Source: Shigella phage Sf13
DNA length: 64,000 bases
Sequence record: MF158040
Direction: 5' to 3' (one strand)
Part shown: one piece after another, positions 2,392-13,171 of the stretch
Position numbering within the stretch: position 1 is the stretch's first letter
Layout: each line of letters opens with the position of its first letter
Notes under the pieces: generated by a model
What the model was told of the DNA's origin: nothing
The model's input: the letters and a program-made list of their open reading frames with translations, nothing else
The model's database searches: none
Position numbers and translations under genes: made by a program

Positions 2392-3059
2392 TTATGGGAC
2401 ACCTACTGAAGAAGAGTTGGAAGAACTTAGCAGATATGGTTCCCCATCTGAAGAGGAAGAGAAAGAACTCCGAAGAATGGGAAGCAATTACTAAGAAATG
2501 TTTTAAGGATTTGATAGAGATGAAAAAGTTTGAACTTGAGAGTAATTATATCACATTTAGTGTTAAAGATGTAGACAGACACTTTACCAAAGATGAGAAA
2601 AGTGACCTGTATCGTCTTATTCATCGGATGAATTATCGTAGAAATCTAACAGGTAAAGAGCCACTTGAAGGTATCTTTGTCAAGAAGTCTTACCCGTTCT
2701 ATGAAGATACTTTGAAGAAACTCGAGATGTATGTTAAGCAGCAGAACCGTAAAGAGTTCTCTATGATTTCTCTTGGTGGACAACAAATGCTGGTTATGGA
2801 AGATATAAACCCTAAAAGAACTAACAAGGGTGTTTGTATCAAGGTCACAGGTAAAGAAGAATTTGTTGATTATGACATACTCAGACACATTATAGATGGT
2901 TTGGGTGCTGCACTGAACATGAATGAATACCATATTAGTTCACACCCGATTAAGGGTGACCAGATAATGATTCAGGTAAGAGAACGCCATAATGGGTTCA
3001 CACACTTCTTCCAAACTTCTAAAACTTCATTGCAAACTATGCTTAGTGAAGTGATGTAA
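2388..3059 (+). CDS. hypothetical protein
   Basis: 223 aa ORF; first codon appears to be GTG overlapping the upstream stop (ATG alternative at 2394); followed by a terminator. Confidence 0.45.
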   Translation: MIMGHLLKKSWKNLADMVPHLKRKRKNSEEWEAITKKCFKDLIEMKKFELESNYITFSVKDVDRHFTKDEKSDLYRLIHRMNYRRNLTGKEPLEGIFVKKSYPFYEDTLKKLEMYVKQQNRKEFSMISLGGQQMLVMEDINPKRTNKGVCIKVTGKEEFVDYDILRHIIDGLGAALNMNEYHISSHPIKGDQIMIQVRERHNGFTHFFQTSKTSLQTMLSEVM

Positions 3060-3067
3060 AACTATAC

Positions 3068-3092
3068 AGCCCCTTAATTGGGGCTTTTTATT
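3068..3092 (+). terminator. rho-independent terminator
   Basis: AGCCCC-TTAATT-GGGGCT hairpin followed by TTTTTATT, directly after the 2388..3059 stop. Confidence 0.6.
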
Positions 3093-4602
3093 GAGTAAAA
3101 TTTACTAAATTTATAATTTTTATAAAATTTGGGATTCACTCCGTTCATCTTGGGTCACCATGATATGTGATAAAATATCTATACCCTTCTAAACACCCTC
3201 TCTAAGCATCATCTCTATATAGTATTATATAGTATCTATATAGCCTCTTAGCCCCTAAATAGTGCTCTCTATATAGCCCTCTATAAAGCCTTCTAAGCCT
3301 ACCATTAATCAACCCTATACAATCACCTTCCTAACCTCTTCATAGCCCCTTAGAAGCCCCTATACTCATCTTAATCTCTAGGTAAACGATAGTACACTAT
3401 ATAGCAGAATCACTAGGTATTACTAAGCCTCTATATAGACTGTTATATAACACTAAACAGGTATTCCCTTCTAAGGCTTATCCTACAAGGTCTAACACGG
3501 TACTAACAAGGTCTCTTATAAGCCTGTTAATTCCTGTTTTATATAAGATAGTGTATAGATAGTTATTCAGTTCTATAAAATTTTTATAAAATAGACTAGG
3601 TAGTGTTTGTTTAGGAGTCTTTGGAGAATCTGAAAAATATCTACTTAGGGTGTATATCTGCTTGGTAGCCCTTAACAGCCCTGTAACATCCCCTTTGCAG
3701 TTTATTAAAATATCATTAACAATTTCTTAACAACTCTCTCAAGCTCTTAACATCTCTTCAGAGTTCTTAACAATCCCTTAACAGAACTAACAAGAGCTTA
3801 ACAAGTCTGTAACGTTGCTTACAAGAGTCTAACAAGTTGCTTATAAGTTGCTAAATAGTTAAATCTTAAGAGTTATTTTGTTAAGATAATTAACAAGGTG
3901 CTAACAAGTTCTAAACCTTTTTAACAGTCTCTTAACATGGTCACTATCTCTTGGTCTATAGTTCCCTATGTTTCTTAGTGATTCTCTATAAAGCCCTCTT
4001 AAAAGCTCTCTATAGCTCTGTATAGCCTCTTCTAAGCTTCTCCCTAGTAACTACACCCCAACTACCTGTATAGCTCTTTATAGGGCTTTCTAGGGGCTTA
4101 TACAGGTACTTCAAAGAGTCTAACAAGCTTTTAACATACCTCTAACAAGGATTTAACAAGGGGCTAACAAGTCTCTAATAAGCATAACTATGTAGCATTT
4201 GTTAAGATTTTGTTAAGAGAATGTAAAGGGGGCTAACTTTTACGTTACTTTTAAGGTTCTTTTACGTTACTTTGAAGACTCCATAACATACTTTAAAGCT
4301 ATTATCAAGCCCCTTTGTAACCATTCACAAGATTCTATCCAGCTTATAAGCTTATACCCTTATAAGATTCTTTTAAGGCTCTAGAAAGCTCTATAAAGGG
4401 CTTTTAAGAGTAGGTTAATATGATTGCTTAAGATGAGATGATAAGCCCGTATAGAGCGTTATAGAGCGTTTTAGGGATTGCCCTTCCCTTTCGGGTTATG
4501 GGCTTATATTTAAGTTGATTTGATAAGAGGATATAGAGTAAGCTATAGAGTTATTATTCTAAATGTATGGGATAGATTCTAGGAAGGTTTCTTTATAGAC
4601 GT
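3093..4602. other. 1.5 kb ORF-free region with short-motif arrays
   Basis: No ORF of 60 aa or more on either strand; + strand visibly G-poor; about 10 copies of (C/T)TAACAAG between 3490 and 4180; many CTATA(A/T)AG(C) motifs; tandem GTTATAGAGCG at about 4455-4480; bounded by inward-facing terminators. Confidence 0.5.
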
Positions 4603-4623
4603 AAAAAGCCCCATCTAAGGGGC
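4603..4623 (-). terminator. rho-independent terminator
   Basis: On the minus strand GCCCC-TTAGAT-GGGGC then TTTTT, just downstream of the 4666..4923 stop; a second GGGGC/GCCCC hairpin lies at about 4637-4651. Confidence 0.55.
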
Positions 4624-4665
4624 TGTAAAGGTGTCTGGGGCTATTTGCCCCGTTGCGGCGACTTG

Positions 4666-4923
4666 TTAGTTATTGAAGCCGTCAACTTCATAGTAAAGCG
4701 TGATAAGAGAATCACCCCAATAGTAAGAGGATTTGCCATCCTTTAAGACTTCTTGTTTTACTTCTTTCCAGAACCACTCAGATTGATTGTAGTCCTGAAT
4801 AGTTGCTTTTAGACACATATCAACCATGCCAAAAACATCGCCAGTTCCAACCATATCAAATTTAACATCTAATACATGGAAGCCAAAATTGTTAACAGTT
4901 GCGTGGATAGTAGCCATTTTCAT
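4666..4923 (-). CDS. hypothetical protein
   Basis: 85 aa ORF preceded by a type B cassette; GGAGA lies only 2 nt from the first ATG, so the second ATG at 4917 may be the real start. Confidence 0.5.
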   Translation of the reverse strand: MKMATIHATVNNFGFHVLDVKFDMVGTGDVFGMVDMCLKATIQDYNQSEWFWKEVKQEVLKDGKSSYYWGDSLITLYYEVDGFNN

Positions 4924-4983
4924 ATTCTCCAGTTTAGGAATTTTGTTTTAGTGGGGAAGTCTCCCTCCCCGTTGAAAGTAATA
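4924..4983 (-). promoter_or_regulatory. cassette type B (GC hairpin + conserved RBS)
   Basis: Minus sense: GGGGAGGGAGACTTCCCC hairpin then AAATTCCTAAACTGGAGAAT before ATG. Confidence 0.5.
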
Positions 4984-5247
4984 TTAATTCATTGCTGCAT
5001 AAGTTGCAAGTCTTTTTTCATTGTATTTTGTAAGAATCTCACAAGATAAAACGTCATACTTTGCAACGGCTTCAGATTTAGTTAAACCGAAATGGCTTAC
5101 AATTTCACCATTCATGAATCCGACTACTTCATAAGATTCTGCGATGATTTCACCGTTGAACCAATCACTTTCAATACGTTTGCAAAGTTGGATATCTTCT
5201 TTGTCAGTACCGATTTGTAACAGGATAGTGATTTCTTGATTATTCAT
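4984..5247 (-). CDS. hypothetical protein
   Basis: 87 aa ORF; ATG preceded by cassette with CTGGAGA. Confidence 0.5.
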   Translation of the reverse strand: MNNQEITILLQIGTDKEDIQLCKRIESDWFNGEIIAESYEVVGFMNGEIVSHFGLTKSEAVAKYDVLSCEILTKYNEKRLATYAAMN

Positions 5248-5307
5248 TTTCTAGTCTCCAGTTTAGGATTGTTGGGGAAGGTCATTCCCTCCCCGTTGAT
5301 AAGTACT
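5248..5307 (-). promoter_or_regulatory. cassette type B
   Basis: GGGAA-GGTCA-TTCCC hairpin plus CCTAAACTGGAGA motif. Confidence 0.5.
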
Positions 5308-5835
5308 TTATAGATTTGTGATGATTTCGTCAAGGGAATTTTCTAAGTTTTTTAAAGATTGTTCGTAAAGTCTAATTCCCCTATTTAATGCTTCCCCTAA
5401 CGTAATTTTAAAACTAGTTGTTGGGTAGTCACTTGTAAAGATGTTTTCCACTTCATAGAGTGGGTATTGTTGGTTACCCGTTCCCATAGCATACATGCCT
5501 GTATAGTGGATTGCAATAAAAAGATTATGGGACTTAATAGAGCGCTCATAAGCCATTTTAAAGCGGTTTAACTCGTTTTTAGTTGCCTTAATAGCCATTT
5601 CGTGAATTTCTGCGACTATAGCCATATAATCATTCAGAATGAGAGAAATAGCCCCCATAAAGTTGTTGGCTGTTACCGCTTTTACATTTGGTCGGTGTAC
5701 ATAAAACTTCTTATCTTCCCCTTTTGTGATAACTGCAAAAACTTTACTCTTTAAGGTAAATTCCCAAGTGTCTTTACAAGGCTTGCTCATCACTTCACGG
5801 CTACGGATTGCATTAACAGCATTAAACTTATTCAT
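5308..5835 (-). CDS. hypothetical protein
   Basis: 175 aa ORF; ATG start preceded by cassette. Confidence 0.5.
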   Translation of the reverse strand: MNKFNAVNAIRSREVMSKPCKDTWEFTLKSKVFAVITKGEDKKFYVHRPNVKAVTANNFMGAISLILNDYMAIVAEIHEMAIKATKNELNRFKMAYERSIKSHNLFIAIHYTGMYAMGTGNQQYPLYEVENIFTSDYPTTSFKITLGEALNRGIRLYEQSLKNLENSLDEIITNL

Positions 5836-5900
5836 TCTAGATTCTCCAGTTTAGGAATTTTGTTTTAGTGGGGAAGTCTCCCTCCCCGTTGATGAATACT
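5836..5900 (-). promoter_or_regulatory. cassette type B
   Basis: Near-identical to the copy at 4924..4983. Confidence 0.5.
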
Positions 5901-6041
5901 TTACTTGTTTTGATTCTGCATTGCAAGTAGTTTTTTATCAAAAACTTTATCTGAGATTTCACCAATGATGAGTACTGCTAATGGCAACACAACAGAAACA
6001 ATCATACCACAAAGGATAGGGTTTTTAATGATATCTAACAT
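5901..6041 (-). CDS. small hydrophobic protein (46 aa, below ORF-track cutoff)
   Basis: Read by eye: MLDIIKNPILCGMIVSVVLPLAVLIIGEISDKVFDKKLLAMQNQNK; preceded by CTGGAGAAT; its 3' end and downstream flank repeat those of 9352..9699; coordinates +/-1. Confidence 0.3.
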   Translation of the reverse strand: MLDIIKNPILCGMIVSVVLPLAVLIIGEISDKVFDKKLLAMQNQNK

Positions 6042-6237
6042 TTAGTGATTCTCCAGTTTAGGAAGTTGCCTTTTGAAGATACTATATAGATATGATTAAA
6101 CCTTTGCAAGTACTTTTTACGCTTATCTATAAAGAATCTATTAAGTTAATCCCTTTTAGATAAACCCCCTCGAACAAAGTTACACTTGTCAAGGGGCATT
6201 GTCAATAGTTTTTCAAAAGATTTTTATAAGTTGTTGA

Positions 6238-6579
6238 TTAGCTTATAAAGATTTTTTCTGGCTTAACATAGGTTAATGACTGTTTTTTAAGCAAATCAGA
6301 CCAAATGAGCGCGGCAATGTGACTATATCCCTTTTCTCTTAACTCCTGCATAGCTGATTTGCGAGTTTCGAAACGTGTAGCGTAGTATTCAGTGTTAAGG
6401 GTAGTTTTATTCCCTTCATTGTCAACATGTACAATCTGCATCACTTGAAAGGGGCTTACATCTTCTCCCCTGTTCCATTGCTCAAAGTACTTGAGACACT
6501 GCATAGGTTTCATTTTGTCGTTAACTTGGGTAGACCATGACGAATTTTCTTTATCGGTGATAATTGTTACATAGGCCAT
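6238..6579 (-). CDS. hypothetical protein
   Basis: 113 aa ORF; ATG start; type A cassette upstream. Confidence 0.5.
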   Translation of the reverse strand: MAYVTIITDKENSSWSTQVNDKMKPMQCLKYFEQWNRGEDVSPFQVMQIVHVDNEGNKTTLNTEYYATRFETRKSAMQELREKGYSHIAALIWSDLLKKQSLTYVKPEKIFIS

Positions 6580-6664
6580 TTTCAGATTCTCCAGTTTAGG
6601 ATTGTTGGTAAAGCTCTTTATCTGGGGCTTAAGATACTAGCTTTTAAACCCCATGTAAAGCACT
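6580..6664 (-). promoter_or_regulatory. cassette type A (promoter-like + GGGG/CCCC clamp + RBS)
   Basis: Minus sense: TTTACA-N17-TATCTT between GGGG and CCCC, then AGCTTTACCAACAATCCTAAACTGGAGAATCTGAA-ATG. Confidence 0.5.
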
Positions 6665-6862
6665 TTAATAAATTCTATCCATCAGATTATTCACGGCCAT
6701 AATTGCATTATCTTTGAAGTGTGGATGACTGCTATTCTGTGAGAATAGTATTTCTCCATTGTATACTATTTTTAGGTCTATCTTTGAACCTTCCATGTTA
6801 AGGTTACACTCTACACCTTTTAAACACCACAAGGTAGAAAGTTTTTGCATCAGTGATAACAT
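6665..6862 (-). CDS. hypothetical protein
   Basis: 65 aa ORF; ATG start after cassette. Confidence 0.45.
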   Translation of the reverse strand: MLSLMQKLSTLWCLKGVECNLNMEGSKIDLKIVYNGEILFSQNSSHPHFKDNAIMAVNNLMDRIY

Positions 6863-6953
6863 TTTAGATTCTCCAGTTTAGGATTGTTGGTAAAGCTCTT
6901 TATCTGGGGCTTATCTTATCTAACTATAAACCCCATGTAAAGTACTTTATTAG
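6863..6953 (-). promoter_or_regulatory. cassette type A
   Basis: TTTACA-N17-TAAGAT, GGGG/CCCC, CTGGAGA RBS. Confidence 0.5.
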
Positions 6954-7175
6954 TTATTTGTAGTAATAATATGTAAACTCATTTATCAGGCTTCCATCCT
7001 CATCATTATACTGCTTATGACTAGCCAGATAACCGCCATTAGCTAGAATTTCATCAATCAACTTTTTAGCGTCATCGTTGGGAATCCTAACAGGTTTACT
7101 AAACGGCTGTAAATAGGTACGACGAACATTTGAGAATTTAAAATCAATGGTTTTTACGTTAAGAACTTGCAACAT
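6954..7175 (-). CDS. hypothetical protein
   Basis: ORF track 6954..7253 begins with TTG inside the cassette; the in-frame ATG at 7175 (MLQVLNV...) follows GGAGA at the same spacing as other array genes. Confidence 0.45.
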   Translation of the reverse strand: MLQVLNVKTIDFKFSNVRRTYLQPFSKPVRIPNDDAKKLIDEILANGGYLASHKQYNDEDGSLINEFTYYYYK

Positions 7176-7253
7176 TTTTTGAATCTCCAGTTTAGGATTG
7201 TTGGGATGTTTCCCGTTGATGAATACTTTACTTTCTTGCGTTTTCAGTGTCAA
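7176..7253 (-). promoter_or_regulatory. cassette type B
   Basis: GGGA-TGTT-TCCC hairpin, CGTTGATGAATACTTTA module, CTGGAGA RBS. Confidence 0.45.
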
Positions 7254-7484
7254 CTACTTTTCTATAAGAATCTCATATTCACCATTCACACTATCAAAGT
7301 AAATACCTTCATCATCTTCTGATTTATAGTAGCACTGTATATCATCCGATGCTGGGTAGTCTTGCCTTGCTATCTGACAGGCAACAATAGCATTATTTTC
7401 GCTACCTGTAAACTCTTCTAAACCTTTAAAGTTGCATTGTGAACCATTGCAGATAGATAGAATAAGATAGATTGTTGTAAGCAT
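7254..7484 (-). CDS. hypothetical Cys-containing protein
   Basis: 76 aa ORF; ATG start; no cassette upstream, only a GC hairpin (about 7505-7525). Confidence 0.45.
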   Translation of the reverse strand: MLTTIYLILSICNGSQCNFKGLEEFTGSENNAIVACQIARQDYPASDDIQCYYKSEDDEGIYFDSVNGEYEILIEK

Positions 7485-7547
7485 CTTTTAAGCCTCTTGT
7501 AAGCCCCTGTGCGGGGCTTTTCTAGTGAACTGGTGTGATTCTATGGT

Positions 7548-8105
7548 TTATGCTGTTAAGTCGTTTATAACCGTTTCTGTTACGTTGCATTGCATGGTGT
7601 CAAAGATATCACAATATACATTGCTCATCCCATCACTACGTTGGACTATTTCTGCAATGTTGCGTAGTTCGTCTGGTACATATCCTAAATTTCTATTGTT
7701 TAGGTTAGGGACAAAGAAAGGCGCATACATAGCATTAAATTCAGTTGTGTAAACCTTTTTAATCCATTCTTTATCGAAATATTCTGTAAAGCTTGCTACG
7801 TCGCTCATGTTCTCACAGCTCCAGTCATCTTGTAAATCATCTTCTGGAATATCCAGTTCCAAGATAACAAGCTTTTGTGACTTCATTTGATAGGCTGCTG
7901 TAATGCTTGCGCTATCAAGCGCGTTTCTAATACCTTCATCTGTGATTTGTTCGTCATCCAGATTCTCTACATCATAGAACTTGTTAACAGGGTAGACGTA
8001 AAAACATCCATCCATATCAGAGCAATTCCAAGCTCCTGATGGTTTATCACCGCCATTGATAAGGTTTACAAAGTTTTCTTGTGTAGTACCATGAAAGCAT
8101 TTCAT
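7548..8105 (-). CDS. hypothetical acidic protein
   Basis: 185 aa ORF, markedly Asp/Glu-rich; ATG start after type A cassette. Confidence 0.5.
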   Translation of the reverse strand: MKCFHGTTQENFVNLINGGDKPSGAWNCSDMDGCFYVYPVNKFYDVENLDDEQITDEGIRNALDSASITAAYQMKSQKLVILELDIPEDDLQDDWSCENMSDVASFTEYFDKEWIKKVYTTEFNAMYAPFFVPNLNNRNLGYVPDELRNIAEIVQRSDGMSNVYCDIFDTMQCNVTETVINDLTA

Positions 8106-8189
8106 TTTAGATTCTCCAGTTTAGGATTGTTGGTAAAGCTCTTTATCTGGGGCTTATCTTATCTAACTATAAACCCCATGTAAAGCACT
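8106..8189 (-). promoter_or_regulatory. cassette type A
   Basis: TTTACA-TGGGGTTTATAGTTAGA-TAAGAT, CCCC, CTGGAGAATCTAAA-ATG. Confidence 0.5.
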
Positions 8190-8438
8190 TTATTTAGTTT
8201 TCTTTGTAAAGATTAGTTTAACGGCAACAGTTGGTAACTCTTCAATACTTGTGAACAAAGTCACTTTTTGAGTCTTGACATTATAGCCATACTTTGAACC
8301 ATAAGCCGTAAAACGGTTTACAATGTAACTGTAAGTTTTTGCAGTGTTATCTGGCATATGATATAAAAACGGCTTGCCAAGGTTATCAAGTTGTGTTAAG
8401 AGTCGGCATGTATCAGGGATATTCAACATATTAAACAT
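8190..8438 (-). CDS. hypothetical protein
   Basis: 82 aa ORF; ATG start after cassette. Confidence 0.45.
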   Translation of the reverse strand: MFNMLNIPDTCRLLTQLDNLGKPFLYHMPDNTAKTYSYIVNRFTAYGSKYGYNVKTQKVTLFTSIEELPTVAVKLIFTKKTK

Positions 8439-8523
8439 TTTCAGATTCTCCAGTTTAGGATTGTTGGGGCTTCTAACTTGCCCCGTTGATGAGTACTCTA
8501 CTACTATGCTTTTGCAATGTCAA
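8439..8523 (-). promoter_or_regulatory. cassette type B
   Basis: GGGGC-AAGTTAGAA-GCCCC hairpin plus RBS motif. Confidence 0.5.
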
Positions 8524-8931
8524 TCAAATCTCTGAATAAATTGCATCGCAGATTTCACGGAAAACTTCAACCGGTAAGTTACGCTGTAACCATGTTGCAA
8601 AGAAATCAGCAATTGCAAAGTTTGCATCAAAATCAACACATAGCCACACTTTAACAGCAAATCTAAACATTTTCAAGTCAAGTTCTTTATTCATTACTTT
8701 TGACTTTGACAGCATTTCTTTCATCTCATACTGAGCACCGTCAATTATAGCTCCTGCTGCTACATCTTGCAAGGATTCTTTAAGCTGTTTTGTGTCTACT
8801 ACTGCGCCCTGAATTTTACCGATGATATTATGTAGTGTTTCGTCTGGTGCTGCTGATGTTACAATGTTGATGCGGTTAATGGTCAAACGTGCTTTCAAAA
8901 TTGCAACTTCTTTGTGATTAACATTAGTCAT
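8524..8931 (-). CDS. hypothetical protein
   Basis: 135 aa ORF; ATG start after cassette. Confidence 0.5.
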   Translation of the reverse strand: MTNVNHKEVAILKARLTINRINIVTSAAPDETLHNIIGKIQGAVVDTKQLKESLQDVAAGAIIDGAQYEMKEMLSKSKVMNKELDLKMFRFAVKVWLCVDFDANFAIADFFATWLQRNLPVEVFREICDAIYSEI

Positions 8932-9020
8932 TTTCTAGTCTCCAGTTTAGGTTAGTTTTAGATAAATCTCTTTATCTGGGGCTATCTTAGCAACTTGATA
9001 ACCCCATGTAAAGCAATTTA
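8932..9020 (-). promoter_or_regulatory. cassette type A (variant)
   Basis: TTTACA-N17-TAAGAT; RBS variant CTGGAGACTAGAAA. Confidence 0.45.
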
Positions 9021-9293
9021 TTAGACTAAATACAATTTTTTACCACTAACAATAATGTAACTTACACCGCTATTACTGTAAACATCTTGATAAATTCTGC
9101 GTAACTTTCCAAGGTATCGAACTTTCCAAGATGTAGGAATTTTCTTTCCATATCCTGTGGCGGTTTTTTGTAGACCTGCTACCTGCCAATCTAATAGGTG
9201 CTGTTCTGCTCTTAACTCTTCAAAGTTTAATACACCGTCTACATAGTGTTTTAAAGTTACGTTCAAAGTTCGACCGTCATTAGTAGTATACAT
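9021..9293 (-). CDS. hypothetical protein
   Basis: 90 aa ORF; ATG start after cassette. Confidence 0.45.
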   Translation of the reverse strand: MYTTNDGRTLNVTLKHYVDGVLNFEELRAEQHLLDWQVAGLQKTATGYGKKIPTSWKVRYLGKLRRIYQDVYSNSGVSYIIVSGKKLYLV

Positions 9294-9351
9294 TTTAGAT
9301 TCTCCAGTTTAGGATTGTTGGGACTTCTATCTTGCCCCGTTGATGAATACT
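9294..9351 (-). promoter_or_regulatory. cassette type B
   Basis: GGGAC...GCCCC hairpin, GTTGATGAATACTTTA module, RBS. Confidence 0.45.
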
Positions 9352-9699
9352 TTACTTGTTTTGATTCTGCATTGCAAGCTCTTTTTTATTAATTTCTTGC
9401 GCTATCACAATATAATAATCTTTCAGGTTTATATCTTGAATTGACTCTAGAAGTATGTCATAATCACTGATTAATTTAAAATCACCGTCTAGAATGTTAT
9501 CAATCCGGTATGTCTCTGCTTTAAATCGAAAGCTCATCTCTAAACGTTTCAATTGTTCTAAGTTCAAACGCTCTAAAAAGCCCCGTACAAGGTTTATTTT
9601 TAAATCCCTTGTAAGTGCCTTATTAGCTATACTGTGCGCTTGTAAGGCTTTATAGAGCGCCACAATAGAGATAAAAATTGCAACGTATGTGATTAACAT
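9352..9699 (-). CDS. hypothetical membrane-anchored protein
   Basis: 115 aa ORF with N-terminal hydrophobic segment; ATG overlaps stop of 9693..9989; C-terminus ...LAMQNQNK shared with the 46 aa ORF at 5901..6041. Confidence 0.45.
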   Translation of the reverse strand: MLITYVAIFISIVALYKALQAHSIANKALTRDLKINLVRGFLERLNLEQLKRLEMSFRFKAETYRIDNILDGDFKLISDYDILLESIQDINLKDYYIVIAQEINKKELAMQNQNK

Positions 9700-9989
9700 T
9701 TGTTTTTACCTTTGTGGAATAGTTTACCAGTGTGACTAATTTCATATGAATCAACCATATCTCTAGTGGTCTTAATCGATGACTTATTAGTGTTATCATA
9801 GATATCAACCTGAAGCAATGGTTTTTTGTATTCTTTACAAAAGTTCCATACACAAATTATTACTTCCTTTTTGTTAATCTTTCCATGATACCACTCTACG
9901 GCTTCAGATGTACGGCGCATGGATTCAATGAATTGGATATTACTTAATAGCTGGCTTAATTTAGTTCTAACGTTTGCGGCAATAAACAT
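9693..9989 (-). CDS. hypothetical protein
   Basis: 98 aa ORF; ATG start after cassette. Confidence 0.45.
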   Translation of the reverse strand: MFIAANVRTKLSQLLSNIQFIESMRRTSEAVEWYHGKINKKEVIICVWNFCKEYKKPLLQVDIYDNTNKSSIKTTRDMVDSYEISHTGKLFHKGKNKC

Positions 9990-10073
9990 TTTAGATTCTC
10001 CAGTTTAGGATTGTTTGTAAAGCTCTTTATCTGGGGCTATCTTATCAACTTGATAACCCCATGTAAAGCACTT
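9990..10073 (-). promoter_or_regulatory. cassette type A
   Basis: TTTACA-N17-TAAGAT, GGGG/CCCC, RBS. Confidence 0.5.
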
Positions 10074-10586
10074 TTAGATATTAAAGATATTCATAACAGA
10101 ATCTTTCAAGGCTTCTAAACGTTCCATTACTTCAGATTCTCCATCGGAGTTCGACACTTCCTCTTCTAATCGTGAATCTAAATCTTCACCGTCAAGATAG
10201 CACCAATCGAAGCCATAAGCAAGAGAAAAGCTATTTAATACTGTATTACCTTCTTTATCTTCTACCTTTGCAAATAGCACGTAGCTGTTAGCCTCTAAAT
10301 CTCTTTGTAATTCATCTTGTAAGCTCTTGTAAGCCTCTATAGATGGATTTTCGCGGCCTTGTTTAGCATAATCACTCATCAATTGTGAAAGGCTGTAATG
10401 CTGTGGAATTGCATATTTGTACCCGTTACGCTCTGGATTTTTAAGTTTGATTGTAACCCCGCCTTTGTGCTCATCGGTAAACTTCCAATTTTCCACACAA
10501 TGGGATGCTTCACAAATATTAACAGCTTCATAGATGATAGTGAATTTTTCTTTTTGAACTTCAAAGGTAGCTTCAACGTATGACAT
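10074..10586 (-). CDS. hypothetical protein (acidic C-terminal half)
   Basis: 170 aa ORF; ATG start after cassette. Confidence 0.5.
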   Translation of the reverse strand: MSYVEATFEVQKEKFTIIYEAVNICEASHCVENWKFTDEHKGGVTIKLKNPERNGYKYAIPQHYSLSQLMSDYAKQGRENPSIEAYKSLQDELQRDLEANSYVLFAKVEDKEGNTVLNSFSLAYGFDWCYLDGEDLDSRLEEEVSNSDGESEVMERLEALKDSVMNIFNI

Positions 10587-10678
10587 ATTAAGATTCTCCA
10601 GTTTAGGACTATTGGTTAGTAAAGCTCTTTATCTGGGGCTTATACTAGCAACTTATAAACCCCATGTAAAGCACTTTA
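10587..10678 (-). promoter_or_regulatory. cassette type A
   Basis: TTTACA-N17-TAGTAT, GGGG/CCCC, RBS. Confidence 0.5.
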
Positions 10679-10936
10679 TCAGATTAAATTGTCAGTTAAT
10701 GATAAGTGCATTTTATAACCTTTCTTCGTGTAGACGTTAGTTCTACCGATTGCTTTTACACCTTTGAAAAGGTCATAGGAACTACGTTTTAAAGTAATTT
10801 CCTTATCACATTTCACGCCCCATCTTACAGCAGATTCTTTTCCGTTGTCAACCACTTTACCATTTAATTTTTTAGCAGTTGCGCGAGCGTCATCACGAGA
10901 TTTTGCAGATACAATGATGTTTTTGATAGTAGCCAT
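10679..10936 (-). CDS. hypothetical basic protein
   Basis: 85 aa ORF; ATG start after cassette. Confidence 0.45.
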   Translation of the reverse strand: MATIKNIIVSAKSRDDARATAKKLNGKVVDNGKESAVRWGVKCDKEITLKRSSYDLFKGVKAIGRTNVYTKKGYKMHLSLTDNLI

Positions 10937-11027
10937 TTTTGATACTCCAGTTTAGGTTATTGTTTGGTAAAGCTCTTTATCTGGGGCTTATCTTATCTAA
11001 CTATAAACCCCATGTAAAGGACTTTAT
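10937..11027 (-). promoter_or_regulatory. cassette type A
   Basis: Same module; RBS variant CTGGAGTATCAAAA. Confidence 0.45.
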
Positions 11028-11408
11028 TTAGTTAATTTTGAAAACTGTAACGTAGCCATCACTACCAATAGTTTGAGATACTCCAGCTTTCTCTATATCA
11101 TACCCCATTTTATCAAGATGGTACATTGCATCTTCATACCCATATTTACCGCCTTGATAGCGTCTTTTTTCGCATCGTATCACAGTTTTACCACGTCCTG
11201 CAATAGCATTTATGATAGCTTTTTCACCGGATAATGTACCGTCAAGCATAGTAGCTTTGTAGTGGTTAATACGGTTACCATTAACATCATACTTAAAATT
11301 GTAAGCGTGAACAACAATTATTTTTCCTTTGAAGTTTTCTTTCATAGTTTCCTCTAAGATACTACGAAAGTTTTCTTTGTTGATAAATTTAGGCGCACGA
11401 TATTTCAT
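11028..11408 (-). CDS. hypothetical protein
   Basis: 126 aa ORF; ATG start after cassette. Confidence 0.5.
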   Translation of the reverse strand: MKYRAPKFINKENFRSILEETMKENFKGKIIVVHAYNFKYDVNGNRINHYKATMLDGTLSGEKAIINAIAGRGKTVIRCEKRRYQGGKYGYEDAMYHLDKMGYDIEKAGVSQTIGSDGYVTVFKIN

Positions 11409-11492
11409 TTTAGATTCTCCAGTTTAGGATTGTTGGTAAAGCTCTTTATCTGGGGCTTAAGATACTAGATTTTAAACCCCATGTAAAGCACT
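11409..11492 (-). promoter_or_regulatory. cassette type A
   Basis: TTTACA-N17-TATCTT, GGGG/CCCC, RBS. Confidence 0.5.
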
Positions 11493-11654
11493 TTATGCAA
11501 TAATTTTTATAAAATATTTCATGGTTATTTTGTCGCCATTGGTAAGGGCTATACAATCATTACCCATAGCAGACTTATAGAGATAGAAGACTTTACCAAT
11601 TTTTGGGTATCCGTCTAAATCTTTGTATTGTATTACATCGCTTTCTTTAATCAT
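11493..11654 (-). CDS. hypothetical small protein
   Basis: ORF track 11493..11732 begins with TTG and overlaps the upstream gene by 67 nt; in-frame ATG at 11654 removes the overlap. Start uncertain. Confidence 0.3.
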   Translation of the reverse strand: MIKESDVIQYKDLDGYPKIGKVFYLYKSAMGNDCIALTNGDKITMKYFIKIIA

Positions 11655-11665
11655 TGTCAAGCCTT

Positions 11666-11872
11666 TTAAACGTTGTAATAATAAATTGCTGTATGCCTTG
11701 TAAACTGTCTTGTATGAGTTGTCAAGTAACAATCTGAACTGATTGACGTATCAACATATTCATCAAAATCCTTTTCTGAGATACGTTGCCAAACATCACA
11801 AATTAGCATATAGAAACGACGTTTATTTGTTTTGTTGTTGTCAACAATCATTAACTCACGTTGATATAACAT
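11666..11872 (-). CDS. hypothetical protein
   Basis: 68 aa ORF; ATG start directly after cassette at 11873. Confidence 0.4.
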   Translation of the reverse strand: MLYQRELMIVDNNKTNKRRFYMLICDVWQRISEKDFDEYVDTSISSDCYLTTHTRQFTRHTAIYYYNV

Positions 11873-11940
11873 TTTAGATTCTCCAGTTTAGGATTGTTGG
11901 GATGTTTCCCGTTGATGCAAATACTATAAGACTGGATTTA
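11873..11940 (-). promoter_or_regulatory. cassette type B (first of array)
   Basis: GGGA-TGTT-TCCC hairpin plus CTGGAGAATCTAAA RBS; a possible promoter TTGACT-N17-TAGTAT lies just upstream (about 11922-11955). Confidence 0.4.
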
Positions 11941-12124
11941 TGAAGTCAACAAAATTTTTAAAAATATTTTCGATGCTTCGTGAATAGAACGCACGTATGC
12001 GGATACACTAAAACAGGAATTTAGTCAAGAATTATTTTTGAGTTCTCTACAAATTTTTCTCTTGACTTTTGGGAGGAAGGGGATTAAGAGGGGATGGTGG
12101 GGCTGGTTTCCTACAGCTACCTAC

Positions 12125-12320
12125 CTGCACAATTTGAAAATGAATTTTCCCTTTGGAGTCCAACTGCATCTGCACAGATTGAAAATGAAAAAGCTCTTTG
12201 GAGTCTAAACCTGCACAAATTTGAAATGAATTTTCCCTTTGGAGTTCAGCTAAAGAAATCTGTCCAGAGTTCTATGCAACTATACCTGCACAAATTTAAA
12301 ATGAAAAAGCCCTCCTTACC
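12125..12320. repeat. four direct repeats of about 36-40 bp
   Basis: CTGCACA(A/G)ATT(T)GAAAATGAA-(TTTTCC|AAAAGC)-CTTTGGAGT starting near 12125, 12170, 12211 and 12286; the last merges into the terminator hairpin. Confidence 0.55.
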
Positions 12321-12352
12321 TGAGATTTTTAAACTCAAACTTTGGAGGGCTT
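12304..12352 (-). terminator. putative terminator (long loop)
   Basis: AGCCCTCC ... GGAGGGCT inverted repeat with a T-run after it on the minus strand, downstream of the macrodomain gene stop. Confidence 0.35.
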
Positions 12353-12376
12353 GTCTATGTCTAGCTAGGTGACTTA

Positions 12377-13171
12377 TTAGTTACGTGCTTCAACATAGCT
12401 TACGTTTTCATGTGTGATATAATCTTCTGCAAACTCTTCTGTAGTAGCATTGATATATACACTTGCATCATCGCCAAACGTTACCGCTCTGTGGTGGTGG
12501 CCTTGTAACGGGTGGGTAACTTGAGCGTTACTTCGATTGTACTTATCAACCGGAGGGTAACTGGTGTGTACCTTGCCATTACGCTTCACCTTGAGGGTAA
12601 CTTTATCCTTGCCTACCACAGCAACACCATCAAAGTATTGAGGCTCACTGAAGTTCTCCCAACCAGTAACAGGACTAGTCAACTGACTGTACATCTTATC
12701 TTCATAGACATACATATATACGTCAACATCTTTCATGGTCTGATTAATAATGGACAGCACAGCCATACTATCAAGACCACCAATCCCTGCACCAATCATA
12801 GGGAGTCCAACCTTCTTAAGCTGGTTTACTTTACAGTAGTTGTTAAGACGCTGTAAAGCTGCTTCTAAGGCATTGTATCGTGCATTTTTTCCAGTGATAA
12901 CCTGAGTATAAAGGTTAGCAATTCGACCCTGCTTCAAACGTGCTACAGAGATGTTACCAAGCATTAGATTCTTAGGGTTATGGTTTTCACCACCTACTGT
13001 AGCATAAACTTCAGCGTCAGTTTCATAAGCTTTTGGGTAGCGTTTAGCAATTGTTGCTGCGATACCTGCACCCATCAAGTTCATGCAGTTACAACCGTGA
13101 CCAATGATATCAAACTTCTTACCATCAAAGTCTTTAAAGATATCACCTTTAATAATTTTTACGATACCCAT
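12377..13171 (-). CDS. macrodomain protein (TARG1/DarG-like ADP-ribosyl hydrolase fold) with C-terminal extension
   Basis: KGDIF...DIIGHGCNCMNLMGAGIAATIAKRYP and LPMIGAGIGGLD resemble the TARG1-type macrodomain (GDLF...HCISEDCRMGAGIA...PRIGCGLD); about 110 aa unrecognised C-terminal region with a GHHH motif. ORF track start is 13228; ATG at 13171 (MGIVKIIKGD...) avoids a 56 nt overlap with the upstream gene. Start uncertain. Confidence 0.55.
   Translation of the reverse strand: MGIVKIIKGDIFKDFDGKKFDIIGHGCNCMNLMGAGIAATIAKRYPKAYETDAEVYATVGGENHNPKNLMLGNISVARLKQGRIANLYTQVITGKNARYNALEAALQRLNNYCKVNQLKKVGLPMIGAGIGGLDSMAVLSIINQTMKDVDVYMYVYEDKMYSQLTSPVTGWENFSEPQYFDGVAVVGKDKVTLKVKRNGKVHTSYPPVDKYNRSNAQVTHPLQGHHHRAVTFGDDASVYINATTEEFAEDYITHENVSYVEARN

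Follow-up and report, generated by a model that had tools for sequence, protein, structure and literature searches.

Two copies of a putative early promoter, probably kept alike by recombination between cassettes, at the ends of two unrelated genes in a Felix O1-like phage genome

In the DNA of Shigella phage Sf13 (record MF158040; the window, a stretch of 64,000 nucleotides to which all positions refer), two open reading frames (ORFs) end in the same eight residues, LAMQNQNK. They are a 46-aa ORF at 5901-6041, here called uA, and a 115-aa ORF at 9352-9699, uB; both are on the minus strand, and the common end reported for them in the initial annotation was confirmed. That annotation had interpreted the observation as a duplicated gene 3' end together with its flank, and as direct evidence that the cassettes found between genes act as recombination joints through which gene segments are shuffled. 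The locus thus raises the question of what has been copied, a piece of a gene or the regulatory DNA into which the gene runs, and what keeps the two copies alike. The explanation that we favour, to which we assign as a whole a probability of about 0.8, is that the repeat would consist of two copies of one sigma70-type early promoter, its activity being predicted from the sequence, that these copies are kept alike by recombination between cassettes, and that two unrelated ORFs read into them.

The region between 4500 and 10500 shows 97.9% identity to Escherichia phage vB_EcoM_3HA14 and around 90% to the Citrobacter phages Michonne and Maleficent, with 248 Felix O1-like records matching it; by sequence, the window is part of a myophage genome of the Ounavirinae (Mooglevirus, species Sf17-like). 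The repeat pair sits among small minus-strand genes whose function is not known, in an array that is the counterpart of ORF15-ORF23 of Felix O1. Using module matches, a promoter scan, folding and repeat families, the whole array was delimited to 4607-11950, with a terminator at 4607-4624 closing it and 16 cassettes that precede almost every small gene. All 16 are on the minus strand, between 4923 and 11891, and their RBS modules are located at 4923, 5252, 5840, 6047, 6585, 6867, 7181, 8110, 8444, 8936, 9298, 9994, 10592, 10941, 11413 and 11877. Eight cassettes (type A) have a TTGCAA, TTGACA or TTGACG promoter and a hairpin 3' of the -10, with the -35, the 17-nt spacer and the -10 at equivalent positions in all of them. 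The other eight (type B) combine TTTACA, 17 nt and TAnnaT with a long hairpin across the promoter, which two TAAAGnGCTTTA palindromes extend to a predicted stem of around 21 bp (-25.1 kcal/mol, z = -4.6). A consensus promoter scan independently listed 12 promoters in the array, eight of type B and four of type A, and the sister cassettes that it found carry TTGACA, TTGACG or TTGCAA, a 17-nt spacer and TAnAGT. A search of positions 3000-12600 against Rfam at E <= 1 gave nothing relevant, with a single chance match to mir-287, and at that threshold the repeat is no known RNA family.

Some features of the type-B cassettes were recorded separately. In those at 6585-6700, 6867-6980, 8110-8220, 8936-9030, 9994-10085, 10592-10700, 10941-11045 and 11413-11525, both the -35 (TTTACA) and the -10 are located within the long hairpin, whose flanks are the palindromes TAAAGTGCTTTA and TAAAGAGCTTTA, pairing to lengthen the stem. 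These palindromes could be operator sites. Even Erwinia phages, among them phiEa21-4 and phiEa104, contain sequences with 80-86% identity to a type-B cassette.

Extent and anatomy of the repeated cassette

A sequence of 44 bp (CTTGCAATGCAGAATCAAAACAAGTAAAGTATTCATCAACGGGG, minus strand) is present without any mismatch at 5884-5927 (copy A) and at 9335-9378 (copy B), 3,451 bp apart, while no match appeared in 100 dinucleotide-preserving shuffles. The near-identity initially described for two intervals is therefore exact over these 44 bp, although the second interval, given as 9343-9385, was placed some 8 nt off. Including an upstream A-tract, the similarity amounts to 58 nt at 93% (5884-5941 versus 9335-9392; repeat family D9), and outside this stretch no alignment of the two loci was obtained, including the DNA upstream of the A-tract. 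Copy A constitutes the promoter core of the cassette ahead of a 175-aa gene (dA, 5308-5835, minus strand), and copy B that of the cassette ahead of a 90-aa gene (dB, 9021-9293, minus strand). Each cassette covers approximately 105 nt from the A-tract to the start codon, so that the shared 58 nt are entirely contained in it; a shared stretch no longer than the cassette itself is precisely the outcome that the initial annotation had named as speaking against its own reading.

On the coding strand the elements follow the order AAAAAA-nnn-C-TTGCAA-(17 nt)-TAAAGT-ATTCATCAAC-GGGG, i.e. the A-tract, the -35 and -10 hexamers with 17 nt between them, and an initial transcribed region (ATTCATCAAC), after which come a GGGG..CCCC stem-loop, the module CCTAAACTGGAGAATC with the Shine-Dalgarno sequence GGAG, and the ATG. 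The A-tract AAAAAA, which resembles an UP element, is located 5' of the -35 at 5931-5936 in copy A and 9382-9387 in copy B; the -35 hexamer TTGCAA occupies 5921-5926 and 9372-9377, and the -10 hexamer TAAAGT 5898-5903 and 9349-9354, respectively, all on the minus strand. The first three bases of each -10, 5901-5903 and 9352-9354, are the stop codons of uA and uB, respectively. The limits of the cassettes are set by the upstream stop, which is either the TAA of the -10 or a codon abutting the -35, and by the GGAG located 8 nt before the ATG. Taken together, TTGCAA and TAAAGT coincide with the consensus in 8 of 12 positions, under the cut-off of the scan tool, so the A/B pair was not listed there. 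The pair does share architecture and position with the array promoters that the scan listed, and the GenBank record of phage AYO145A annotates the homologous cassette as a promoter.

At these promoters the host RNA polymerase with sigma70 would start around 7-8 nt past the -10, near 5890 and 9341, and the leaders would begin 2-3 nt 5' of the hairpin. The stem-loop of cassette A (GGGGAGGGAGACTTCCCC, 5870-5887, minus strand) has a 7-bp stem beginning some 3 nt past the predicted start, and the 62-nt leader folds with a predicted energy of -16.3 kcal/mol (z = -2.5). That of cassette B (GGGGCAAGATAGAAGTCCC, 9320-9338, minus strand) has a 5-bp stem and a weak predicted fold (z = -1.5); it is a different module from that of A, common to cassette B and the cassette at 8444. 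Stem-loops at the 5' terminus shield E. coli mRNAs from RNase E-dependent decay, and the hairpins could act as stabilisers of the 5' end, as attenuators of transcription coming from upstream, or as both. The attenuator role is possible by analogy with the promoter-early stem-loop (PeSL) cassettes of T4-type phages considered below. That the hairpin 3' of the -10 might serve as an intrinsic terminator was discarded, given that the hairpins of these cassettes have no T-run and that the terminator scan did not list them. The CTTG...CAAG inverted repeat within the promoter was also dismissed as a meaningful RNA or DNA hairpin, its stem of 4-5 bp being only a minor element of the fold.

The translation-initiation module CTAAACTGGAGAATC lies at 5833-5854 in cassette A, with the GGAG at 5844-5847 and the ATG of dA at 5833-5835, and at 9291-9312 in cassette B, with the GGAG at 9302-9305 and the ATG of dB at 9291-9293 (both minus strand). 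With up to two mismatches, 16 copies of this module exist, on one strand and always 5-9 nt before an ATG. At 5844-5853, and in every other RBS module, a 3-bp helix (UCC...GGA) is predicted within CCUAAACUGGAG that partly covers the GGAG; it is weak and may be incidental.

Expression data exist for the homologues of both downstream genes in Felix O1, where RT-PCR showed that ORF22, the homologue of dA, was maximally transcribed 5 min after infection and placed ORF19, the homologue of dB, at 25 min (PMC3185647). A literature search on transcription starts in Felix O1 gave no mapped starts or reporter results for these promoters.

Origin of the common C-terminal tail

Both upstream ORFs encode proteins for which Pfam gave no domain, as was also the case for dA and dB, and PHROGs gave only families of unknown function. 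uA is a small predicted membrane protein (phrog_7482), annotated in relatives as AC3HA14_1065, Mordin_111 and Sf18_gp86; uB belongs to a different family, phrog_4375, whose profile covers only residues 1-110. When the two proteins were compared by BLASTP, the similarity was restricted to the last 12 residues, 10 of which are identical. Counting from the C of CTTGCAA, the -10 TAA is reached after exactly 24 nt, or eight codons. The two unrelated ORFs end in LAMQNQNK because both enter the same promoter in frame as CTT-GCA, and any ORF entering in this way gains eight codons before it terminates at the -10 TAA. The last eight codons of uA are the -35 and spacer of promoter A, and the last nine of uB (ELAMQNQNK) are a clade-specific extension through promoter B. 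By this comparison of the sequences, the shared tail is promoter DNA translated in frame. Reading of an upstream ORF through the -35 and spacer is a consequence of genes being packed so tightly, and is not restricted to this pair: the -10 TAA doubles as a stop codon at four cassettes (4984-4986, 5308-5310, 5901-5903 and 9352-9354), one of them being that on which dA itself stops (5308-5310), and two further upstream ORFs end immediately before the -35.

The comparison of orthologues confirms that the tail of uB is promoter sequence. The 115-aa form of uB, ending on the -10 TAA, is confined to one clade, to which the window, the Sf phages, Mordin, Moogle and phiSUSP1 belong. The uB of KMM4 and of an IMG/VR contig, with 108 aa, has as its stop a TAG abutting CTTGCAA; at that position the window reads GAG, so that the Glu of ...KKELAMQNQNK occupies the position of their stop. 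In CHB7, Silverhawkium, SUSP2 and pEC-M719 uB stops at a TAA 5' of the -35, and in four Felixounaviruses the stop is a TGA inside the -35 itself (TTGACA or TTGATT). A tail of the LAMQNQNK type is kept in all uA orthologues, yet it is not an ancestral part of both genes, since in uB it is a clade-specific read-through.

These data bear on the idea of a duplicated gene 3' end plus flank, with cassettes shuffling coding pieces between genes. It is true that uA and uB have their last 8-12 residues and 36 nt of coding DNA in common, and that events of this kind do happen, as illustrated by Shigella phage KPS64, in which the final 22 codons of uA, together with cassette A, are duplicated in tandem (2937-3130 in the KPS64 sequence, joined at GAGAATC|TTTGG), leaving two identical promoters in a row. 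This is the sole true duplication of a gene 3' end plus cassette that was found. In the window, however, the shared stretch is -35, spacer and -10, wholly within the cassette, the similarity between uA and uB ends at the A-tract and does not proceed beyond the regulatory element into coding sequence, the tail of uB is absent from its orthologues in six lineages, and the two ORFs belong to different PHROG families. We consider this duplication very unlikely, and what had been described as a common gene end is better understood as promoter elements read in frame.

Another possibility, that LAMQNQNK is a functional C-terminal motif (for example, a tag by which two small membrane proteins are sorted or interact) and that selection on the peptide keeps the DNA identical, could find some basis in the fact that both ORFs begin with a hydrophobic helix and in the presence of the tail in all uA orthologues. 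Nevertheless, the tail changes with the promoter variant (LAIKNQNK, LAIQNQNK, LAKANQNK, LAKVNQNK), it is missing from uB in most lineages, and copy B is non-coding in CHB7 and Silverhawkium and still identical to copy A. This makes a peptide-driven explanation extremely improbable.

Upstream of uA, the spacer 5' of the promoter of the 46-aa gene (6062-6237) is unusually long, around 175 nt. Within it is GATTCTTTATAGATAAGC, a motif whose conservation extends from Moogleviruses to Felix O1; in the latter, the motif is located directly 5' of the A-type promoter.

Exchange between cassettes in related genomes

If the repeat is a promoter present in two copies, their identity has still to be accounted for, and comparison of sites A and B among relatives is informative in this respect. 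Five variable spacer bases are alike at both sites within a genome and differ between lineages: they read TGCAG at A and B in the window, 3HA14 and Sf18, TAAAG at both sites in Mordin and Michonne, and AGGCA at both in CHB7 and Silverhawkium. The distance between A and B within a genome is 0, 1 and 0 in the TGCAG, TAAAG and AGGCA groups, respectively, compared to 3-6 between orthologues across lineages, a co-variation based on seven variable positions in around five independent lineages. The length over which A and B are identical also varies, reaching some 100 nt, nearly the whole cassette, in Mordin and CHB7, and only the promoter half in the window. There are two exceptions to the co-variation, KPS64, with a difference of 1 nt between A and B, and IMG/VR 3300045988, with 7 nt. 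In the latter, site A resembles that of KPS64 and site B that of KMM4, and from its sequence it appears to be a recent inter-lineage recombinant. Regarding the sources of these data, a scan of IMG/VR with AATCAAAACAAGTAAAGTA retrieved five loci, two of which look like copies of the Michonne and Moogle genomes (identical tblastn results); only the locus designated L010 added information, and GenBank phage records were used instead.

A second pair behaves in the same way in Felixounaviruses. There the promoter at site B is TTGACACTGrTTTTTAGATAGATTAAATTAC and its partner site is 3' of the homologue of ORF20; in Felix O1, TH10 and HY02 alike, the two copies of a genome do not differ from each other, but each of the three phages has its own variant. 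Inheritance of both sites as a block was rejected as the cause of co-variation, since it cannot make paralogues more alike than orthologues. Selection on the peptide cannot explain it either, because copy B is non-coding in CHB7.

An explanation without recombination is strong purifying or convergent selection on one optimal promoter, for example if a regulator of phage or host origin, bound to the spacer, co-evolved with it. Functional constraint is indeed suggested by AATCAAAACAAGTAAAGT, conserved 5' of dA from Moogleviruses to Felixounaviruses while dA itself falls to around 42% identity. Against this, other promoters of the array have unrelated spacers, the paralogues share lineage-specific variants at 3-6 positions, chimeric promoters exist, one genome tolerates seven differences between A and B, and the length over which A and B are identical depends on the lineage. 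Selection of this type seems to us a very unlikely source of the identity.

Recombination between cassettes, as it was proposed at the outset, is well supported by the concerted copies, by mosaic cassette halves, by a chimeric promoter and by the position of homology breakpoints. The chimera is found in Escherichia phage AYO145A, where the promoter at site B, 5' of the homologue of the 90-aa gene, is CTTGATTTTGGTTTTTAAAACAAGTAAATTACTAATCAAC, in which a 5' half derived from the TTGACACTGG-type promoter is joined to a 3' half derived from that genome's own A-type promoter (AAAACAAGTAAATTACTAATCAAC). A comparable hybrid occupies site B of SUSP2. In the window, cassette A is composed of the D9 promoter half, common to B, and a half termed D11, which comprises the hairpin and RBS (5841-5892, minus strand, 52 nt) and is an exact match to 4924-4975, in the cassette ahead of an 85-aa gene. 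Cassette B consists of the D9 half and a D7 half (9293-9356 versus 8439-8502, 92%), and the D9/D11 and D9/D7 junctions are near CAACGGGG.

Whole genes also come and go at these points. The unit formed by uA and one cassette is absent as a whole in Moogle, phiSUSP1, SUSP2 and all the Felixounaviruses compared, and in those genomes dA directly follows the preceding promoter. In an IMG/VR contig, a uA resembling that of the window is linked, at cassette A, to a dA allele resembling that of Moogle. Of 13 relatives compared, 3HA14 aligned end to end, and in the other 12 the internal BLAST breakpoints formed 28 clusters, 23 of which are in cassettes, although these make up 20% of the region (binomial p ~3e-12). 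This statistic is confounded, because the intergenic regions are the cassettes themselves and any conserved repeat prolongs a BLAST alignment, and it cannot by itself separate cassette recombination from selection for intact genes. Judging from the sequences, the exchanged units are whole genes and cassette halves rather than gene segments as had been first suggested, in line with the assignment of uA and uB to different PHROG families.

Recombination between cassettes could account for these data as follows. Copies A and B would stay identical within a genome through gene conversion or short-patch homologous recombination, and the same exchange would swap cassette halves and insert, delete or replace whole genes between relatives. 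Only short homology would be needed. An A-type promoter (CTTGCAA...ATCAAAACAAG-TAAAkT) is present 5' of dA throughout the subfamily, even at ~42% dA protein identity, while site B is more diverse: Felixounaviruses have another promoter there, AYO145A and SUSP2 have hybrids, and Moogleviruses a complete A-type copy. The most economical reading would be that site B was progressively converted by the promoter of site A and that then, in one clade, the stop codon of uB was lost and uB was extended through the promoter, this being the presumed order of events. A more speculative scenario is that of a dedicated exchange targeted to sequence, instead of cassettes being passive patches of homology. 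The GGGG..CCCC hairpins or the type-B TAAAGnGCTTTA palindromes would be recognised by a phage protein that actively cuts out and inserts units of ORF plus cassette, in an integron-like manner, within a strictly lytic subfamily. Its footprint would then be the closely concerted evolution of certain promoter pairs, but the likelihood that we concede to such a system is very low.

At site B of Shigella phage Sf18 (around 7790-7830 in the Sf18 sequence), a deletion between two ACGG microhomologies has removed the hairpin together with the RBS module and the start codon (ATG) of the 90-aa gene, fusing the promoter to codon 3-4; the corresponding record annotates a longer, overlapping CDS.

Relation to known systems and neighbouring features

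The closest parallel is provided by PeSL cassettes, described in the T4-type phages RB49, phi1, PST and nt-1 (Arbiol et al., 2010, PMC2839356; Comeau et al., 2014, PMC4122927), for which promoter and terminator activity and the formation of mini-circles have been demonstrated experimentally (PMC2839356; PMC4122927), and whose stem-loops attenuate upstream transcription (PMC2839356). As in PeSLs, the cassettes of the window have an upstream stop in an AT-rich stretch, sigma70-like -35 and -10 sequences, a GGGG..CCCC (polyG...polyC) stem-loop, a Shine-Dalgarno sequence and a start codon, the stop and the Shine-Dalgarno marking their bounds. The position of the stem-loop is variable in both systems, either between -35 and -10, as in type B here, or past the -10, as in type A. 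Both cluster in variable regions populated by small genes with no assigned function and show indels or replacements of small ORFs at their flanks between close relatives, a trait that in the window is confounded with intergenic position. On the other hand, the genome studied here is of the Ounavirinae and not T4-like, set apart by genome type alone; its Shine-Dalgarno module is far more uniform, its ORFs overlap the promoter up to the -10, and the concerted evolution of individual promoter pairs seen here has not been described for PeSLs, the term "gene conversion" occurring 0 times in the first of those reports (PMC2839356). By analogy, the window cassettes are best regarded as a PeSL counterpart in another subfamily and not as members of the original family. 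Literature searches on the cassette motifs, Mooglevirus and Felix O1 transcription starts gave no PeSL interpretation of Ounavirinae, PeSL terms led to papers on T4-type phages only, and a further search on Felixounavirus to unrelated work only.

Parts of these cassettes have been noticed before. The Felix O1 genome paper lists direct repeats of 39 and 57 bp (Whichard et al., 2010, PMC3185647). The 57-bp repeat, CTTTACATGGGG...CCCCAGATAAAGAGCTTTACC, is the homologous type-B cassette, and the 39-bp repeat, TTGACACTGG...ATCAAC, is a type-A promoter found at site B of Felix O1, forming the second co-varying pair mentioned above; the partner of site B is a different site in Felix O1 than in the window. 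These repeats were not among the promoters predicted in that work, recombination was not discussed, and the existence of secondary promoters downstream was left open (PMC3185647). In Citrobacter phage Mordin, a 26-bp repeat, CCAACAATCCTAAACTGGAGAATCTA, has been compared with the start-associated sequences (SAS) that mycobacteriophages of cluster K carry (Guan et al., 2015, PMC4611695). It corresponds to the RBS module of the window, with its 16 copies, and covers only the 3' third of the cassette; promoter and hairpin went unrecognised, and the repeat was linked to neither promoters nor recombination (PMC4611695). The likeness to SAS does hold as to a short, conserved, asymmetric motif right before start codons, although as analogy and not homology. 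Integrons (attC) offer another partial comparison, with small ORFs, promoter-associated or promoterless, gained and lost at repeated hairpin-forming junctions, one that the PeSL authors themselves drew for PeSLs (PMC2839356). Here, however, every cassette includes a promoter, exchange appears to be homology-dependent, and no integrase or dedicated recombinase was identified.

Repeats left uninterpreted in two genome papers on Felix O1-like phages, Felix O1 and Mordin, thus find an explanation, and the idea of promoter/stem-loop cassettes as linkers for modular exchange is extended from T4-like phages to a second subfamily of myoviruses, the Ounavirinae, which are used in typing and therapy of Salmonella, Shigella and E. 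coli. The additions to previous knowledge are modest, namely the evidence of concerted evolution of promoter pairs and the use of the -10 TAA as a stop codon. They illustrate that paralogous promoters within one phage genome can evolve in concert and that promoters embedded in coding 3' ends can give rise to spurious "shared protein motifs". For annotation, C-terminal tails of ORFs of the uA/uB type should not be taken as homology, and around 16 predicted early promoters could be added to Felix O1-like genomes.

Two further observations concern the surroundings of the array. At its head, just 5' of the first promoter (11921-11949) and inside a plus-strand ORF (12094-12372), four copies of a 43-nt unit, ACCTGCACAATTTGAAAATGAATTTTCCCTTTGGAGTCCAACT, are found at 12123-12326, with 63-100% identity to the reference copy and start-to-start distances of 45, 41 and 75 nt. 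Their spacing is no steady multiple of 3 and the homologous ORF ranges from 159 to 354 nt among relatives; the units may be regulatory or origin-like rather than coding repeats. At the other end, between a convergent block of plus-strand genes and the minus-strand array, positions 3060-4640 constitute around 1.6 kb with almost no ORFs, including a 31-nt repeat (3875-3905 versus 4207-4237, 81%) and the array terminator. This stretch may hold the genome ends or a terminal repeat, because the linear records of several relatives in GenBank begin or end near it, as in KMM4, with around 2 kb before the first gene.
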